Below, piece after piece: positions 17,674 to 57,366 of a stretch of DNA of 64,000 nucleotides. Each line of letters starts with the position of its first letter. The first letter of the stretch is position 1. Made by a program: the position numbers and the translations under genes. The notes beneath the pieces were generated by a model that worked only from the letters and a program-made list of their open reading frames with translations, was not told the origin of the DNA and searched no databases. The DNA is from Magnetococcales bacterium (GTDB lineage: Bacteria; Pseudomonadota; Magnetococcia; Magnetococcales; JADFYX01). The stretch covers positions 1,044 to 65,043 of the forward strand of contig JADFZS010000010.1 of NCBI GenBank assembly GCA_015232405.1, in the 5' to 3' direction.

Positions 17674-20376
17674 TCAATCTGAGGATAATTGGGATTGCAG
17701 GCCAAGGCGCACTTCAACCATTTCGTAATCACCTTCAAGGCTTTTTATCTTAAAGCCCAGTTTTTCTACTAAAGCAAGCATGTCGTCATTGCTGCTCAGA
17801 ACCAAACCAAATATGGTCTTGGTGTGCCGACTATGGCAGTAGTTGATCATTTTATTCATAAGTAGACTACCCAAACCCTGCCCCTGGAGATCAGAACGGA
17901 TCAGGATGGAGTACTCTGCCTCCTCGTTATCTGCTGTGGTTGCGGTGTTGACCACCCCCAAACACTCCGGTTCACCTTGGGGTCCAAGAGTCATGGCCAT
18001 GAAAGCCATCTCCCGGTCATAATCAATATGTATAAGCTGAGCCAGTAGTTCAGGGGTAAGATTTGTCATCTCACCACAAAAGCGTAGCTGTCTGTCCCTT
18101 GAAGATGTCCGCAGGATTAGCTGTTTGTATGCCACTTCATCTTCTGGCAAAACTGGTCGCACCAATACGTTACGTCCATCTCTAAGTATGATATTTTCCT
18201 CCAACTCTCTAGGATACGGCCGGATTGCTAGACATGTTGTATTATCCGCCACATCAGAGAGGGCGATGCGAGCATCAATCACCAGACAGTCGTCAGGGCC
18301 AGCAAGAATGGGGTTCATATCCAGCACCTGTATTTGTGGGTAATCTATGACCAGTTCTGATATCCGCACCAGGAGTTGCTGGATTCGACCGGAATTGGCC
18401 AGTTTGCGGCCATCTTGTGTGTCTAAGATGGTTCCAATACTAGTACGGGTGATCAACTCCTTAGCCAATGACATATTTAGGGGTGGCAAGGTGACGGCGC
18501 GATCCTTACGAATATGGGTTCTCGCGCCACCAGGACCAAAACGAATCAGTTTTCCAAAAAGGCTATCATTTGCTATCCCTGCCATAATGACAAGATTGTT
18601 TGGTCTTCTGACCATCTCCTGAACAACAAAACCGGGGAAAGCCTCTCCTGGGTTATGTTCTTGAAACTCTTCCAACATCCTTTGACCCAAATTGGTCGCC
18701 TCCTCCTTGCAGGATACATCTGTAACCATATGACCAGTAAAATATTTAGCAATAATACTCTTGGAGCAAGGTCGCAAAGATACTGGGTATCCCACCTGGG
18801 CAGCAGCATTAACTACATCTTCAAGGGTATTTGCAATGCGGGTTTTTGGTGATTGAATCTCATAGCTCTCTAACAACTTGGCTGTCTGTTCCTCATCCAT
18901 GAAATAACAGCCCTCTGACATTATTTTTTCTATCTCTTTTATATTCTCTTCACGTTGGGCAGGACTGATCCTGGAGGTATAAACCGGGCTTTGCAGCATC
19001 ATATCCTGGTTTCTTTGGAAAGAGGCCAGATAGTGGAACCCCCTCGCCGCTTTATCCGGTGTTGAAAAAAGTGAAACATGGGCTTGAATGAAGATTTTAC
19101 GAAGATGATCCAGGCGGTCTAATGGCATACCAAGCCAACAGGCCATGACATTGCGCATGGATTTTTTGCACAGTTCAGTCACCACCTCCGCCACCTTGTC
19201 CCCAGGGGCCATAGGGGTTGGTGCGTGCATGACCAGGATGCCATGAATCCCCTTTGCTTTCAATAATATATCCATCACTGCGCGATACCTACTTGCATCT
19301 GCGTCACGACCGATATCCAGAGGAATTCGTGGTGGTCCTGATCCGGCATAGACAGCGGATAACGCCTTGGAAGTCTCTTGATCGAACATATGGAGCTGAC
19401 TGCCTCCAGCAACCAGTATATCTACAGCCACCTCTGCCGGACCACTTCCATTGCACAATACCACCAGGGAGTTACCTAAAAATGGGCGACTGTTGGCTAG
19501 TGTTTCAACAGCATCAAACAGTTCATCGGTATGGGTTACCCGCAGCATGCCAGCTCTACGTACGGCAGCATCAAAAACTTCGTCGGAATACTCCTGGCTG
19601 TTTTCGTCTGCATTGACGATTATTGTTCCATCATTACGGCGGTTTGCCTTAATGGTGATAACAGGCTTTATTCGGGATATTGCCCGTGCAGCAGAGAGAA
19701 AGCGACGGCTATCATGTATGGATCGAATGTAGAGCAGCACCGCCTGCACATTGGGTTCCAAGGCCAGAGAGTCGAGGATATCGGCTAGATCAACATCCAC
19801 CGAGTCACCAACAGAGATAACATGGGAAAATCCAACCCCTTTTGCTGTGGCCCATTCCAAAACACCAGCTACCAGACTTCCCGACTGGGAAACTATGGCT
19901 AACTTCCCTTTTTGGGCTGTAGTATGAATCCAACTGGCATTCAAGCCAATACCTGGAACCTGAATACCAGTGGAGCCAGAACCAAGCAGTCTAACACCGG
20001 ATATTCTAGCCACTTTGCTGATCTCTTCGGTGAATGAGGTTTTTTCTCCAACCTCTGAACTATCAGGATCTACGGTCATCACCACTGCCATACGATTTCC
20101 AATACTTCCCAACTGCTCGATCAACGGAGCAATGGTTGGTGGCGGAGTGCAGAGTATCGCCAGATCTGGTGAAATCGGCAGTGTTTCAACTGAGGGATAA
20201 CATAAGACGCGCAGTACCGACTCATATCTGGGATTGACAGGCATCACAGGACCGTGAAAGTCACTGAGCAACAGGTTGCGCATCACCATGGCTCCGAGAC
20301 TGTCTGGACGGTTAGATGCACCAATAATGGCAATAGAACGTGGTTTAAATAGTTTTTCCAGATTGGATAAACTCAT
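17674..20376 (-). CDS. Pat/YfiQ-like protein lysine acetyltransferase (ADP-forming acyl-CoA synthetase-like domains plus C-terminal GNAT)
   Basis: N-terminal CoA-binding SIAIIGASNRPDSLG, a central ATP-grasp-like region and a C-terminal GNAT with LQGQGLGSLLMNKM. Length is 900 aa. Confidence 0.8.
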   Translation of the reverse strand: MSLSNLEKLFKPRSIAIIGASNRPDSLGAMVMRNLLLSDFHGPVMPVNPRYESVLRVLCYPSVETLPISPDLAILCTPPPTIAPLIEQLGSIGNRMAVVMTVDPDSSEVGEKTSFTEEISKVARISGVRLLGSGSTGIQVPGIGLNASWIHTTAQKGKLAIVSQSGSLVAGVLEWATAKGVGFSHVISVGDSVDVDLADILDSLALEPNVQAVLLYIRSIHDSRRFLSAARAISRIKPVITIKANRRNDGTIIVNADENSQEYSDEVFDAAVRRAGMLRVTHTDELFDAVETLANSRPFLGNSLVVLCNGSGPAEVAVDILVAGGSQLHMFDQETSKALSAVYAGSGPPRIPLDIGRDADASRYRAVMDILLKAKGIHGILVMHAPTPMAPGDKVAEVVTELCKKSMRNVMACWLGMPLDRLDHLRKIFIQAHVSLFSTPDKAARGFHYLASFQRNQDMMLQSPVYTSRISPAQREENIKEIEKIMSEGCYFMDEEQTAKLLESYEIQSPKTRIANTLEDVVNAAAQVGYPVSLRPCSKSIIAKYFTGHMVTDVSCKEEATNLGQRMLEEFQEHNPGEAFPGFVVQEMVRRPNNLVIMAGIANDSLFGKLIRFGPGGARTHIRKDRAVTLPPLNMSLAKELITRTSIGTILDTQDGRKLANSGRIQQLLVRISELVIDYPQIQVLDMNPILAGPDDCLVIDARIALSDVADNTTCLAIRPYPRELEENIILRDGRNVLVRPVLPEDEVAYKQLILRTSSRDRQLRFCGEMTNLTPELLAQLIHIDYDREMAFMAMTLGPQGEPECLGVVNTATTADNEEAEYSILIRSDLQGQGLGSLLMNKMINYCHSRHTKTIFGLVLSSNDDMLALVEKLGFKIKSLEGDYEMVEVRLGLQSQLSSD

Positions 20377-20635
20377 CTCTCCATCCCTTGCATCGTTTAA
20401 CGATTAACAAGAACATCACGTATCTGTTGAGAACAGTTTGCTAATATGTATTAAACAGACAGAAAACCAACTCCTATTTTTAAATGCAAGATGAGTATGA
20501 AAATATTTTATTAACAACTCCATCTCACATCGGTGTTACCATCTGGGAAAATGTGGCATAGTTTTATATTCTTAAAGCTCCTTGCAACATAGCAGTGGAG
20601 CAAGTCCGGTAAACATTATTGCTACAACTGGGTTT

Positions 20636-20802
20636 AACCTAGAAACGGCAGTTGTCGGCACGCACCTGATGCAAGCTATTGATTCACCTGGTATATCAGA
20701 GGAAAGTCTTATCACCAAAAAGGTGACTGCGATTTCCCCTGATACACCAGATAAACCAATATCTTACACCATGCACGCACCGCCAACCGCCGTTTCTAGG
20801 TT
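20636..20802. repeat. Palindromic repeat-family copy interrupted by a ~106-bp insert
   Basis: Left arm AACCTAGAAACGGCAGTTG (20636-20654) and right arm CAACCGCCGTTTCTAGGTT (20784-20802). The loop sequence GCACGCACC is present on both sides of the insert (20658-20666 and 20773-20781). Confidence 0.8.
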
Positions 20803-20811
20803 TAAGCAAGC

Positions 20812-22563
20812 ATGGCTTATGGTAAAGATATTATGAAACAAAAAAAGAAAAAACCATTAAAAACGGGTAGTGTAAAAAAGAAACTTGAAAAAGCTTTAGA
20901 GGCTTTTAGCAAAGGGAAAACAAAAAAGACCCGTCTTTTGTGTTTATCAATATTGAGAGATAGGCCACACAACCCCACGGCACTGCTTTTGGCTGGGCGT
21001 ATCGCTGTACGTGAAGGACGCATGGATGAAGCTGTAGAAAGTTTGCGTAGGGCTGTTATCCACGCTCCTAATAATGCTGATACTCATCAAATTTTGGGCA
21101 AAGTCCTAAACAAACTGGGAGATCCCGAAGGGGCAGTTGCAGCCTTTAGAGAGGCAGTACGAATAAATAACAGACACAAAAAAGCCAGCCGAAGTCTGGG
21201 TAAAATCCTGTTGCGCAGTGGGCAGTATGCAGCTTCAGAGACACATCTACGGCAAAGTCTGGAAGTTTCTCCACACCGTATCCGACTTCGTTATCTCCTT
21301 GGTGTGGCCTGTCGAAAACAGAATAATCATGGAGAGGCAGAACGAATATTTCGCACTATTATTGAGATACGCCCGGATCATGTCGATGCATTGGTTAATC
21401 TGGGCATATCCCTACGTGAACAAGGTAAGTTACAAGAGGCAGAAAGCTTCTTGATACAGGCTGCTAGTAAAGACAAACAGTCGGCAAAAACTTATGCCAA
21501 CCTAGCCTTGACTCAATATGAGCTTGGTTTCAGCACAAAGGCAGAGGAAAACTGCAACCACTCCTTGCAACTAGAACCCAACAGAGCATATGTGCACTGG
21601 ATTAGAGGACAGAGTCGTCTACGACAGGGAGTTCTGGAAGATGGGTGGAAGGATTTTGAATGGCGCACCCGTATGGATGGCTATCACCATTCCAAGCTAC
21701 CATTTGTCGAATGGAGTGGTGAAGATTTGCGTGACCGGACTATATTGGTCTATGGAGAACAAGGGATTGGTAATGAAGTTATGTGCGCGTCCTGTTTGGA
21801 TGACCTCATCAATCAGGCAGGAAAGGTTATTCTGGAGTGTGATGTTCGTTTAGTCGCCCTGTTCCAATATACGTTTCCCCATATCATGGTGGTCAGGCGT
21901 TATAGAAAGGGCAATAAAGCTTGGTTAGATGCCCTACCCCCTGTTGATTTTCAAATATCCAGTGCATCTTTGCCCCGTTATTTCCGCAACAGTAGCGAAG
22001 ATTTCTCAGGCAAGAGACCCCAATTATGTTCCGATCTCACTCTCAAAAACCAGTGGCAGGAGAAATTGGCCTCTCTTGGTGATGGCTTGAAAATCGGTAT
22101 TTCATGGCGTGGAGGTTCCCATCCTCTGGCACGAAAACAACGATCAACGGAACTTTTTCATTGGGCACCACTTTTCAATATTGACGGTGTACATTGGATC
22201 AATGTTCAATATGGTGCCAGTGATAAGGAACTGGCCCAAACCAGTTGGGATATGGGAGTACAAATCAACCATTTCAGCAATTTTGATCCCTTGGGTGATC
22301 TTAATGGCTTTGTCGCTCTTCTCTCTTCTCTGGATTTGGTGATCTCCATCGACAACAACACGGTACACTTTGCCGGAGCACTGGAAGTTCCAGTCTGGAC
22401 CTTGTTACCATTCGCTGCAGATTGGCGATGGATGGAGAGCCGGGAAGATACTCCATGGTACACCAGTATGCGGCTTTTCCGTCAAGAACGGCCCGGAGAT
22501 TGGGGAGCAGTTTTCAATAAAGTCGCAAAAGCTCTGCAAGTGTTAAAAGATAATCACCACTGA
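20812..22563 (+). CDS. TPR-repeat protein with C-terminal GT9-like (heptosyltransferase-fold) glycosyltransferase domain
   Basis: N-terminal TPR units (AxxxLGxxLxxxGDxxxAxxxFxxAxxxxP patterns). The C-terminus has ILVYGEQGIGNEVM and DLVISIDNNTVHFAGALEVPVWTLLP...DWRW, typical of the GT9 fold. The start could instead be the ATG at 20836. Confidence 0.7.
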   Translation: MAYGKDIMKQKKKKPLKTGSVKKKLEKALEAFSKGKTKKTRLLCLSILRDRPHNPTALLLAGRIAVREGRMDEAVESLRRAVIHAPNNADTHQILGKVLNKLGDPEGAVAAFREAVRINNRHKKASRSLGKILLRSGQYAASETHLRQSLEVSPHRIRLRYLLGVACRKQNNHGEAERIFRTIIEIRPDHVDALVNLGISLREQGKLQEAESFLIQAASKDKQSAKTYANLALTQYELGFSTKAEENCNHSLQLEPNRAYVHWIRGQSRLRQGVLEDGWKDFEWRTRMDGYHHSKLPFVEWSGEDLRDRTILVYGEQGIGNEVMCASCLDDLINQAGKVILECDVRLVALFQYTFPHIMVVRRYRKGNKAWLDALPPVDFQISSASLPRYFRNSSEDFSGKRPQLCSDLTLKNQWQEKLASLGDGLKIGISWRGGSHPLARKQRSTELFHWAPLFNIDGVHWINVQYGASDKELAQTSWDMGVQINHFSNFDPLGDLNGFVALLSSLDLVISIDNNTVHFAGALEVPVWTLLPFAADWRWMESREDTPWYTSMRLFRQERPGDWGAVFNKVAKALQVLKDNHH

Positions 22564-22660: not shown

Positions 22661-22679
22661 CAACCGCCGTTTCTAGGTT
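22661..22679. repeat. Solo right arm of the palindromic repeat family
   Basis: CAACCGCCGTTTCTAGGTT followed by AAATG, identical to the right arm and flank at 26460-26483. No matching left arm nearby. Confidence 0.7.
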
Positions 22680-26258: not shown

Positions 26259-26426
26259 GAGTCACATTCTATAACATTATCTTCTTTTTTTCAAATTTTA
26301 TGATTCTAAAGTACAATCAAGATAGCACAATATATGTAACCATATTCTAAATACCAACAACCTCCTCAACTCGACAACTGGCCCATACTTCTATCTCAAA
26401 GCCATGGCTATCGGCACTTTAGATTA

Positions 26427-26478
26427 AACCTAGAAACAGCAGTTGTCAGTACGCACCGCCAACCGCCGTTTCTAGGTT
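26427..26478. repeat. Intact copy of the ~52-bp palindromic repeat family
   Basis: AACCTAGAAACAGCAGTTG - TCAGTACGCACCGC - CAACCGCCGTTTCTAGGTT. The arms are complementary except at two positions. Confidence 0.85.
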
Positions 26479-26739
26479 AAATGAGTAGCCCTAGAATTTC
26501 TTTCAGTCGGAAGATGTTGTCCATTCCAATTAAATGTCGCCATTGATTTGGCAACTGAACCAATAGTTTAACTAGCCTTGGCTGAGTCAGTTTGCTGTTG
26601 GAACAGGCATTTATTAAGAATCTCTATAAACTAACAATCGTATGTGTTAGATTCAACAAAACCATCCAGCTGCTGTTATTTAGGTTAAGTATATCTATTT
26701 CTGAATCTTTATATCAATTTATGTTATGATGAGTGACAT

Positions 26740-41834: not shown

Positions 41835-41968
41835 TGGCATAATGGGCTACAGCCTTATATCTCTGGTTTAATAATTTGCTTAAAAGAAATAAGAGACTAT
41901 CACAATGGTTGAGGGTCAGGTCATCAAACATTGGAGAGGTAGAAATCTACCAAGGGAATCTAATTATC

Positions 41969-44065
41969 ATGAATAGAATCAAACACACACTGACCATGGC
42001 ATCATGTTTTGCCGCATTGCTTGGGGCTGTTGGGGGGGCAGAGGCCCAGGAAATGAGTGAAACTGCTGCAGAGTTCATCAAACCTGAGAGTTGGTTCTCT
42101 ATTGGTGTTGGATTGCAAGATGGTAACAGGGAACAACTGGGAACCTTCGACAATGAACGTGGCAGTGGTGTGCGGTTGCTGTTGGATGCCGACCTTAAGG
42201 TGAGAGATGATAAAACAGGTATATGGAAGACCGCCCAGATAAAAAATCTGGGGCAGGATAACCGCAGTGTAAAATTGGGTTATAACCACCAAGGACAGTG
42301 GGGTGTCACACTCGACTATGTAAGCATGCCTAGAGTAGCACCATTTACGGTTTATTCCAGCAACAGTGGTTTGGGTACAGCAACACATATAATCAACACC
42401 ACTGCCGCTGCTGGTAGTGGACCGGAAGTAGAGGTCAAAACCAACCGTGACCGAACCAAGCTCAGTCTCTATAAAAATGTTAAAGATCACCTACGCTTCA
42501 ATTTTAATTTTAGCAATCAGATAAAGAGTGGAACCCGTGTTTGGGGACAACGTGGTTATGGTGATGGTGGCAGCTATCCTGAGTTTTTGTTGGAACCCAA
42601 CAATCACACCATTCGTGATATGGATACCAGTGTCAACTATATGAGTGATAAACTGCAATTGACACTTGGTTATTTTGGCAGTTGGTTTTCCAATGAAGAT
42701 AATTTAGTAAATGTGACTAGAGAAACTGGTACTGCAACATCTCCCTATATATCCCTGCCATTAGATAATGAAGCCCACAAGCTTCATATGAGTGGTGGTT
42801 ATAACTTTACCGATACAACCCGTGGTGCTTTTAAAGTCTCTTATAACAGAGCACTGCAAAATGAGAGAATGCATCTGTCTGACATAACTGGTTTGAGCAT
42901 TAGTGATACCGCACCAACAAGTTTAGAAGGTAGGATAGATACCACATTGGTGCAGGTGGATGTGACCAGTCGCCCTAATCCAAAGTTAAATGTTTTGGCA
43001 AAGCTGCGTTATCTCAATGATGAGGATAGAACCCCTCCTTGGGAAGTGGTCACAGGCTCCACGACAATACGCTCCAATCCAATATCCAAAACAACCTACA
43101 CCGGAAAGGTTGAAGCTACCTATCGCCTGCCAGACAGAACCAGGGTAACAGCAGGAATCAAACATGAGTTCCAAGATCGTGAAGTACCCATTGGTAATGA
43201 TAGTGATGGGGATGGTTTTGACAACGAACGTGTCGTTCCATTTCGTACTGAATTGAGTGAAACCACTTATAAACTTCAATTACGTCGGGCTTTAACCCAA
43301 ATTGCCAACGGTTCTTTGTCCTATAAACATTCAGAACGTGATGGATCAAATTATACCGATGGTGATAGACTAACAGAGAGTTCCACCCTACAGATTACTC
43401 CCTACTATATATCAGACCGTACACGTGACAAGTTGCGACTGGCTGTTGATGTTCGTCCTATTGATGTCTTTGGATTACAATTTAGCTCTGAGTATGTAAA
43501 CGATAAACACAGCAAAGGTGATAGACCACACGGACGGGATAAAGCACGTACTCAGCTCTACTCAATCGATGCCGATTATGCCTATTCCAGTGACCTGCTA
43601 TTCACAGCATGGTATTCCCGACAGATAGATGAGATATGGCTTGGTACATACTATGCCTTTAATGGTACAAATCCGGCTGAGAAATACTCCGAAGTCGAAG
43701 ATACATCCGACTCAATTGGATTCGGAGTTCGCAACCAATATAGTGATTCCATAAAACTCGGTGCAAATTTGTTGATGACAGTCACCGAAGTGAAGTACAA
43801 TGATGTGGTTGAACCGACTGGAGTGACTCAGTTACCGGAAATCGAAAGCGAAACCACCAAGTTCAACGCTTTTGTTGAATATGTTGGGTTAGGTCCGGGA
43901 ACTCTGCGAGCAGATTATGTATACGAACGGTGGGACACCAATGATTGGACTTGGCAGTTCAGCGATGGTTCCCCATATAGCTATCTGACCGATGGTACTA
44001 CCATTGTTGCAGATGATGTTCAGGAATCCAACTTTATTGGGGTCCGCTATACGACCGAATTTTAG
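41969..44065 (+). CDS. Outer-membrane beta-barrel protein, MtrB/PioB/MtoB family
   Basis: Signal peptide MNRIKHTLTMASCFAALLGAVGGAEAQ, ~700 aa of alternating beta-strand-like sequence and a C-terminal aromatic residue (...RYTTEF). It sits immediately downstream of the decaheme gene. Confidence 0.75.
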   Translation: MNRIKHTLTMASCFAALLGAVGGAEAQEMSETAAEFIKPESWFSIGVGLQDGNREQLGTFDNERGSGVRLLLDADLKVRDDKTGIWKTAQIKNLGQDNRSVKLGYNHQGQWGVTLDYVSMPRVAPFTVYSSNSGLGTATHIINTTAAAGSGPEVEVKTNRDRTKLSLYKNVKDHLRFNFNFSNQIKSGTRVWGQRGYGDGGSYPEFLLEPNNHTIRDMDTSVNYMSDKLQLTLGYFGSWFSNEDNLVNVTRETGTATSPYISLPLDNEAHKLHMSGGYNFTDTTRGAFKVSYNRALQNERMHLSDITGLSISDTAPTSLEGRIDTTLVQVDVTSRPNPKLNVLAKLRYLNDEDRTPPWEVVTGSTTIRSNPISKTTYTGKVEATYRLPDRTRVTAGIKHEFQDREVPIGNDSDGDGFDNERVVPFRTELSETTYKLQLRRALTQIANGSLSYKHSERDGSNYTDGDRLTESSTLQITPYYISDRTRDKLRLAVDVRPIDVFGLQFSSEYVNDKHSKGDRPHGRDKARTQLYSIDADYAYSSDLLFTAWYSRQIDEIWLGTYYAFNGTNPAEKYSEVEDTSDSIGFGVRNQYSDSIKLGANLLMTVTEVKYNDVVEPTGVTQLPEIESETTKFNAFVEYVGLGPGTLRADYVYERWDTNDWTWQFSDGSPYSYLTDGTTIVADDVQESNFIGVRYTTEF

Positions 44066-44151
44066 CTGTAATGTTCATTTAGAACAGCAACAGCAACCAA
44101 CAATGGTTGCTGTTGCCGTTTTAAGTGATCAGCTTTCTTAGAGAAACACCT

Positions 44152-57220: not shown

Positions 57221-57303
57221 TTTACAGCTGTTTTATAGCAGACTCAAAGCCCTAGCCCACATGTTGCTAAATTCGGTTGAGAGAACCGGGCAGGAACAAT
57301 AAC

Positions 57304-57351
57304 CCTAGAAACGGCGGTAGGCGGTGCGTGCTGACAACCGCCGTTTCTAGG
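57304..57351. repeat. Copy of the palindromic repeat family, inverted orientation
   Basis: CCTAGAAACGGCGGTAG - GCGGTGCGTGCTGA - CAACCGCCGTTTCTAGG. The loop is the reverse complement of the 26446-26459 loop with one substitution. Confidence 0.85.
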
Positions 57352-57366
57352 ATAACCAAGTCTTAG

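Follow-up and report, generated by a model that had tools for sequence, protein, structure and literature searches.

The palindromic repeat at 20638-20800 of the window (the whole stretch of 64,000 nucleotides of Magnetococcales DNA analysed here) appears from its sequence to be one complete non-autonomous element of 163 bp, a MITE with IS1380-like ends. The 163-bp form spreads as a unit, and nothing has inserted at the 20638-20800 locus itself. The 106-bp centre of the element and the two 9-bp repeats that bound it are inherited parts of that unit. The compact 48-bp copies in the same window probably arose by deletion of the centre between the 9-bp repeats of a long form, a reading to which we give a probability of roughly 60%.

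Structure of the element and its IS1380-like relatives

An earlier reading of this DNA, made from the sequence only, described two intact arms, a 106-bp insert at 20667-20772 and a perfect 9-bp repeat on either side of it. Direct reading of the sequence confirms this layout, with the parts in the order arm, 9-mer, centre, 9-mer, arm. The arm at 20638-20657, which reads CCTAGAAACGGCAGTTGTCG on the plus strand, is of the IRR type and forms the 3' arm of the hairpin of the minus (sense) strand, while the arm at 20782-20800, which reads CCTAGAAACGGCGGTTGGC on the minus strand, is of the IRL type and forms the 5' arm; both are assigned to the minus strand. The two arms differ, one being IRL-like (GGTTGGCGG) and the other IRR-like (AGTTGTCRG). 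The 9-mer, GCACGCACC, is found at 20658-20666 and again at 20773-20781 with 9/9 positions identical, and can alternatively be parsed as a direct repeat of 8 bp (GCACGCAC) around a unit of 107 bp. The palindromic centre, or core (20667-20772, minus strand), has the termini CTGATGCAAG... and ATGGTGTAAG... in the long form. It extends the stem formed by the arms and has homologues elsewhere. At its apex is the hairpin TCACC-AAAAA-GGTGA (20712-20726), which is invariant across all long-form copies. Outside the arms, the pentamer TTTAA at 20633-20637 is matched by the same pentamer at 20801-20805. Since it is the whole 163 bp that bears this 5-bp TSD, the element arrived at 20638 as a unit.

Four copies of the family are present in the window: the 163-bp copy, two copies of 48 bp and a solo arm. 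One compact copy lies on the minus strand at 26429-26476 (26424-26481 with its TSDs), between TTAAA at 26424-26428 and TTAAA at 26477-26481. The other is inverted and lies on the plus strand at 57304-57351 (57299-57356 with its TSDs), between ATAAC at 57299-57303 and ATAAC at 57352-57356. With TTTAA, TTAAA and ATAAC, every complete copy in the window (3/3) is flanked by 5-bp direct repeats. The solo arm, CAACCGCCGTTTCTAGG, followed by TTAAA, occupies 22661-22677 and represents a truncated copy. The 9-mer occurs four times in the 64-kb window, against an expectation of 0.10, and a 14-mer of the arm occurs seven times, against 0.11. A further hairpin, with 28-nt arms (TTTAGAACAGCAAC...GTTGCCGTTTTAAG, 48 nt), is located at 44071-44131, directly 3' of the stop codon of ORF 41876-44065. 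It may represent either a stem of the terminator type or a 48-bp copy in decay; a covariance model built on the core gives it only the 18 bits of a generic hairpin.

The long copy sits in a divergent spacer between a gene for a Pat-like acyl-CoA synthetase/GNAT protein (17674-20376, minus strand) and a TPR gene (20812-22563, plus strand), and ends 11 bp upstream of the start codon of the latter. ORF 20582-20836 runs through the element and had been taken earlier as probably not a gene, which is right. In a protein database search it is related only to frames that read through other copies of the element, and the similarity stops at the element ends. The ORF is a repeat artefact, and the element has no coding capacity. 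Identification of the family thus accounts for four repeat copies in the window and removes one spurious ORF. The nearest homologue of a flanking gene, beyond the source MAG, is only 50% identical, so that the sequences compared include no orthologous empty site, and an exact-protein look-up of both flanking genes, aimed at sister strains, returned no match on record.

The TPR gene is bracketed by family sequences, with the long copy before its start and a solo arm of the same orientation 98 bp past its stop. IS1380-family elements are able to mobilise adjacent DNA by using surrogate ends. The outer flanks around the bracketed gene disagree, being TTTAA on one side and TTAAA on the other.

The ends of the element are those of a group of larger insertion sequences. 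Both ends carry the 17-nt tip CCTAGAAACGGCRGTTG, which is common to all members of the family and is also found in L119 and in about a dozen ISs of 1.64-1.68 kb. L119, located on a Polaromonas plasmid, is an autonomous IS of 1638 bp with the ends CCTAGAAACGGCAGTT... and CCTATTTTCGGCAGTT..., a TTTAA TSD and a 510-aa transposase. About ten copies of 1646 bp, which encode a 523-aa transposase, were encountered in a metagenome scan, together with two of about 1.68 kb. The autonomous elements sampled come from plasmids and metagenomes, none of them from a Magnetococcales genome. Each is 1638-1682 bp long and encodes a single transposase; the TIRs measure about 17 nt, and their tips start with CC. 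The target duplications are AT-rich, and those around the autonomous copies L119 and L129 are 5 bp. In sister copies of the window element, such as the one in L135, the first 22 nt are identical to the IRR of 1646-bp autonomous elements such as L134.

Both transposases (510 aa and 523 aa) match the Pfam model DDE_Tnp_1_4 above its cut-off of 34.7 (86 bits). The best NCBIfam model for both is transpos_IS1380, which is matched over its full extent (positions 8-417 of 419), while the next family scores below 35 bits. As the score of 155-158 bits (E 1.6e-45 to 4e-46) falls below the curated cut-off of 180, these transposases represent a divergent clade of IS1380-like ISs. The size of the parent ISs, their short TIRs and the 5-bp duplication fit the IS1380 family, of which IS1247 is a described member with a length of 1672 bp, an IR of 16/13 and a DR of 5 (PMC3281130). 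An IS1380-like transposase was sought in the 64-kb window by tblastn, and none is encoded there. Shared tips, 5-bp TSDs and the lack of a transposase in the window therefore suggest that the palindromic repeat is a MITE of this divergent IS1380-like group.

In its observed properties the element conforms to a MITE: it is short and non-coding, shares its TIRs with an autonomous IS, has a matching 5-bp TSD and occurs as dispersed copies. It is ordinary selfish DNA. Compared with members of the IS1380 family such as IS1247 and ISEcp1, the window element shares 17-22 nt of both ends with the IS1380-like relatives, as well as the 5-bp duplication, but is without a gene and has a length of only 163 or 48 bp. 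We know of no described MITE family that is tied to IS1380-like ends. A text search of the literature, which covered the TIR string only, returned no match.

Elements that have this tip and 5-bp TSDs were found in Oxalobacteraceae, Methyloversatilis, Hydrogenophilus and gammaproteobacterial MAGs. Further hosts of elements with the tip are plasmids of Hydrogenophaga and Polaromonas and a Limisphaerales chromosome. The elements in these groups measure between 94 and 340 bp. The repeat family is seen here in Magnetococcales, in Beta- and Gammaproteobacteria and in one Verrucomicrobiota genome. The TSDs among the relatives include TTCAA, ATGAT, ATTAT, TTGAA, ATCAT, ATAAT and TTTAT, and perfect 5-bp flanks of the type WTNAW surround all three full copies in the window and most relatives in which both flanks can be read. 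For annotation, the family can be recognised by its tip, a 5-bp WTNAW duplication and IS1380-like partners.

A contig scan with the 14-mer returned at least 115 loci, mostly chance matches, with about 20 real relatives among the matches listed. A 25-mer specific to the sublineage of the window had 0 matches in a first metagenome scan, and viral contigs scanned with TIR and core patterns gave nothing relevant. On the Limisphaerales chromosome (OZ260084.1; L024, L043, L072 and L101) there is a repeat of about 187-294 bp that has the same 17-nt tip, followed by CACGGAT-type motifs. Since Limisphaerales belong to the Verrucomicrobiota, the TIR family crosses phyla. No transposase was found beside the solitary arms in Limisphaerales, L112 and L113.

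Origin of the long and short forms

At least 14 other long-form copies are present at unrelated loci (L135, L149, which is truncated, L155, L165, L171, L172, L188 and P0241-P0248). All of them share the arm/9-mer/centre junctions, and where complete they have the same length, while the flanks differ between copies. L175 shows the core only, because its contig ends inside the core. P0241-P0248 are eight copies that were retrieved by comparing the translated spurious ORF with a protein database; all have both arms and unrelated flanks. One of these eight lies in another Magnetococcales MAG (L188 9525-9687), is 163 bp long and has the TSD TTAAA. The spacer between a HATPase gene and a 200-aa gene holds the long form in L188 and measures only 30 nt in a syntenic JGI contig. 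The copy in L171 is exactly 163 bp after removal of a nested IS and is flanked by TTTAA. According to BLAST, the core of the window copy is 80-85% identical to the cores of L165, L135 and L155; the core in L188 is about 95% identical to it, as estimated by eye from the alignment.

These copies bear directly on the proposal, made in the sequence-only reading, that a very small element inserted into the loop of a resident compact copy at this locus and left a 9-bp TSD. Such a fresh insertion at 20638 would account for the local direct repeat and the insert only. The same junctions and a homologous core (80-95% identical) recur in all the other long-form copies, including the one in the second Magnetococcales MAG, and the TSD that belongs to this locus is the 5-bp repeat around the whole 163 bp. 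Moreover, core and arms have co-diverged, with compensatory changes across the junction, and no second copy of the core was detected in the 64-kb window, either by a search with filters off or by the covariance model of the core. The proposal is thus unsupported, and we regard a fresh insertion as extremely improbable. The other suggestion offered at the time, that the family has a variable central region, is supported by the range of forms found: besides the size classes of 48 and 163 bp, relatives include elements of 39, 52 and 94 bp and others of about 170-340 bp.

Internal deletion of a long form does occur. A 52-bp copy at L188 10377-10428 has a single 9-mer followed by ATGG, the first four bases of the core, and from this sequence it appears to be a long form deleted at breakpoints other than those of the 48-bp copies. 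It lies in the 200-aa-gene/DUF3301 spacer (L188 10314-10538), where JGI 3300072015 carries a long form. Among relatives, what sets the shorter elements apart from the longer is the clean loss of a single internal block (330 versus 170 bp, and 323 versus 233 bp). Elements of 39 and 48 bp that consist of TIRs only, with flanking duplications of 4-5 bp, are found at L148 123-161 (the same as L153 3199-3237), at L163 1344-1391 and in the upstream region of L172. Within a host genome, the long and the short form have the same TIR variant.

A concerted change of the TIRs is seen in L188 9525-9687, L171, P0243, P0247 and P0248, where CTAGAAACGG is replaced by CTAGATTCGG and CCGTTTCTAG by CCGAATCTAG. 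Through this triple change, one arm of the L188 copy reads ATT for AAA and the other AAT for TTT, while the core is still the one that closely resembles that of the window copy. This suggests that the ends track the resident transposase.

The following course of events seems the most likely. An IS1380-like transposase encoded outside the window would bind the 17-22-nt ends in trans and would move the 163 bp as a unit into TTTAA, a target of the WTNAW type, with duplication of 5 bp. Slippage or recombination between the 9-bp repeats would remove the hairpin-prone centre, whether at the resident site or ahead of another round of transposition. The 48-bp product would have intact ends and might still be able to move. 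In E. coli, palindromes are deleted between short direct repeats by slipped-strand mispairing. The present family is similar in that a 9-bp repeat stands at symmetric positions of a long palindrome, and the short form equals the long form minus its centre and one copy of the repeat. It differs from the E. coli case in that the direction of change is deduced here from a 52-bp relative with other breakpoints.

Against deletion, a perfect 9-bp repeat that bounds a unit with its own inverted ends is a classical signature of insertion. The deletion model needs the 9-mer to be a self-pairing (G.U) segment of the stem, and we estimate the probability that such a repeat is present somewhere in the stem by chance at roughly 0.05-0.1. 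An ancient nested insertion is to be weighed as well, in which a palindromic, MITE-like unit of 106/107 bp entered the apex of a 48-bp IS1380-type element and duplicated 8-9 bp (GGTGCGTGC). The composite would then have been spread as a 163-bp unit by the IS1380-like transposase, and the 48-bp copies would be either the uninvaded form or recombination revertants. We consider this course of events possible, if on the whole unlikely.

The 9/9 direct repeat, with GCACGCACC on both sides, stands exactly where a nested insertion would place it, at the boundary of the unit. L171, L172 and L175 each have an IS of the IS701 family in the long form's apex loop, which marks hairpin apexes as targets; because this other IS inserts there with an 8-bp duplication, insertion into an apex is mechanistically plausible. 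A diverged sublineage (L172) includes a 48-bp form with a different centre, which would also fit. The interior of the long form is palindromic, as in many MITEs, unlike that of the sampled autonomous ISs, in which palindromy ends after about 17-22 nt. Simple internal deletion of those ISs thus does not explain the long palindromic interior.

Other observations do not favour a nested origin of the core. Its apex hairpin is found in every sampled autonomous IS, at about the tip distance that is typical of the family, although, apart from repeatedly picking out this motif, local alignment between the core and the termini of 12 autonomous ISs did no better than with shuffles. The same junction and 9-mer are present in all long-form copies, with no case of different junctions that would point to independent insertions, so that at most one ancient insertion event can have taken place. 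The insert alone, with other duplications, is represented by a single ambiguous half-copy. Searches with the covariance model gave no armless core in the window or in 73 loci (L116-L188), a limited search space biased towards arms, and there is none among the eight protein-level matches. The half-copy is the piece at L135 131-200, a half core without an IS1380-type arm or a 9-mer, which starts 4-5 nt past the outer end of a complete long-form copy. Its presence beside another copy would suit a nested insertion; however, it shares the derived variant CGAAG with its neighbour and is therefore not an old independent lineage. Furthermore, the 52-bp copy in L188 indicates that short forms arise from long ones, and the TIR variant common to short and long forms of one host genome likewise argues against nesting. 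Lastly, the direct repeat is produced equally well by the reverse process, deletion between repeats.

Pairing and strand polarity of the hairpin

The insert had been said to have no obvious terminal inverted repeats. This is wrong, since the core is an imperfect palindrome in register with the arms, and an inverted-repeat search gives arms of 78 nt that are 77% complementary. Where the two halves disagree, the mismatch is nearly always a transition, which gives G.U on the minus strand. A single hairpin of about 73 base pairs spans the whole element. Folding of the minus strand yields an uninterrupted hairpin at -118.4 kcal/mol (z -14.5), compared to -72.7 kcal/mol for the plus strand. The two 9-mers pair with each other on the minus strand, with six Watson-Crick and four G.U pairs.

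Covariation was measured on a gapless alignment of six long-form copies. In this alignment 98.4% of cells are paired, compared to 37-47% in slid controls. Compensatory double changes are seen in 15 pairs, including pairs across the arm/core junction, and 0/500 shuffles reach the observed values. There are 55 G.U cells versus two A.C cells, which favours the minus strand here. The sense strand has the more stable fold in all copies, with a margin of 12-47 kcal/mol over the antisense strand, and with the core covariance model the window copy reaches 113 bits on its minus strand and 56 bits on its plus strand. The sense strand (minus here) runs from IRL to IRR, which is the transposase-sense direction of the parent IS.

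With its pairing on one strand, the element may be a transcribed leader structure of the parent IS or a descendant of one. A more far-reaching possibility is that selection maintains the 163-nt hairpin as a strand-specific structure of single-stranded RNA or DNA, which spreads by transposition and whose apex serves as a landing pad for ISs; we hold this to be speculative and rather doubtful. If it is true, the hairpin might act as a double-stranded RNA substrate, as a regulatory stem or as a hairpin that controls transposition and was taken over from the parent IS leader. The element would then be a mobile structured-RNA module and more than a passive MITE.

It could also be argued that the hairpin is primarily a functional structured RNA or a cis-regulatory stem, such as a terminator, an mRNA stabiliser, an RNase III site or a REP-like sequence, and that its mobility is secondary. 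The very stable fold, the strand-specific pairing, the conserved G.U pairs and the compensatory changes are what such a role would lead one to expect. However, neither the window nor any of 13 related loci matched an Rfam family at gathering thresholds, and the E-value mode gave only sub-threshold, microRNA-like hairpins. A scan of 20300-20900 detected no promoter-like or terminator-like sites. The orientation relative to neighbouring genes varies among the three window copies and the two L188 copies, and a cis-regulatory role is therefore not supported. Moreover, TIRs, TSDs and autonomous partners fully account for the spread of the element. A primarily regulatory hairpin thus seems improbable to us.

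Known mobile repeats and the apex of the hairpin

Short, non-coding hairpin MITEs with TIRs and target duplications are known from several bacteria, and include the Correia elements (NEMIS) of Neisseria, RUP, ERIC/IRU and Nezha. Correia-type MITEs have many intergenic copies, occur in long and internally deleted size classes and form long hairpins when transcribed. The family described here is similar in having long and internally deleted forms and in its hairpin fold. The known MITEs differ in their TIRs, in their parent IS families and in their duplications, which in Correia elements is TA. In addition, the entire 163 nt form one stem with G.U polarity here, and the short form is little more than two TIRs.

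Nested mobile repeats are a further point of comparison. In cyanobacteria small dispersed repeats are found inside other repeats, and IS1397 and ISKpn1 target REP sequences or hairpin loops. For the family described here this picture applies one level up, to the IS701-family IS, which lies within the long form at its apex loop and is flanked there by an 8-bp duplication. The 106-bp centre itself differs from such nested repeats, as it has one ambiguous armless copy and no known autonomous partner.

IS1380 transposases form the prokaryotic outgroup of piggyBac, and CCCTT is the commonest 5' motif of the C-rich tips of piggyBac elements (PMC10813416). The tip of the window family, CCTAGAAA..., and its T/A-rich targets (TTTAA, TTAAA) may recall these C-rich tips and the TTAA target. 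The duplication is 5 bp here and not 4 bp, as in piggyBac, and the elements are bacterial. The resemblance is at most reminiscent and would serve as a lead, not as a relationship.

The forms of 39-48 bp consist of little more than two putative transposase-binding ends and TSDs, which places them among the smallest plausible mobile units. They would be convenient substrates for examining the minimal requirements of IS1380/piggyBac-type transposases. Pairing on one strand and the repeated landing of another IS in the apex are leads on the interplay between hairpins and transposition. The TIR-only forms, the strand-specific hairpin and the apex-seeking IS might thus be of interest to specialists, as modest leads only.

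The apex motif, TCACC-N5-GGTGA, is present in 12/12 autonomous ISs (L119, L125, L129, L130, L133, L134, L136, L140, L159, L160, L164 and L170), where it lies within about nt 77-101. Its distance from the IRL tip is 87 nt, or 85 in the count for L119, for which the outer boundary was placed 8 nt too far out; in the long form the motif is located at about nt 75. In L119 the motif includes part of the start codon, and in the other autonomous ISs it is found some ten codons inside the transposase gene. In 1.06 Mb of retrieved loci the motif occurs 46 times, against about one occurrence expected. With its fixed distance from the tip, it looks like a signal at the nucleic-acid level in the autonomous ISs, whatever it encodes.

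The IS701-family IS occupies about 146-1930 of L171, and apart from the three apex loops it also adjoins the half-core in L135 (131-1797). It is thus found on four contigs, with three transposase variants in all. It encodes a transposase of 445 aa (NCBIfam transpos_IS701_3, 375 bits), has the TIR CTGAAGTTTCACC and makes duplications of 8 bp. In the apex loops the duplications measure 8 bp in L171 (CCTTGTTG) and 7-8 bp in L175. The possibility that the core represents long TIRs of this IS was considered and rejected, as the IS has a short TIR and 8-bp duplications of its own and is positioned inside the apex loop. Across this IS the L135 contig looks like a chimera, since the flank beyond the other end of the IS does not match. 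A more distant clade (62% identical) lands in AT-rich TTCTTAAA instead.
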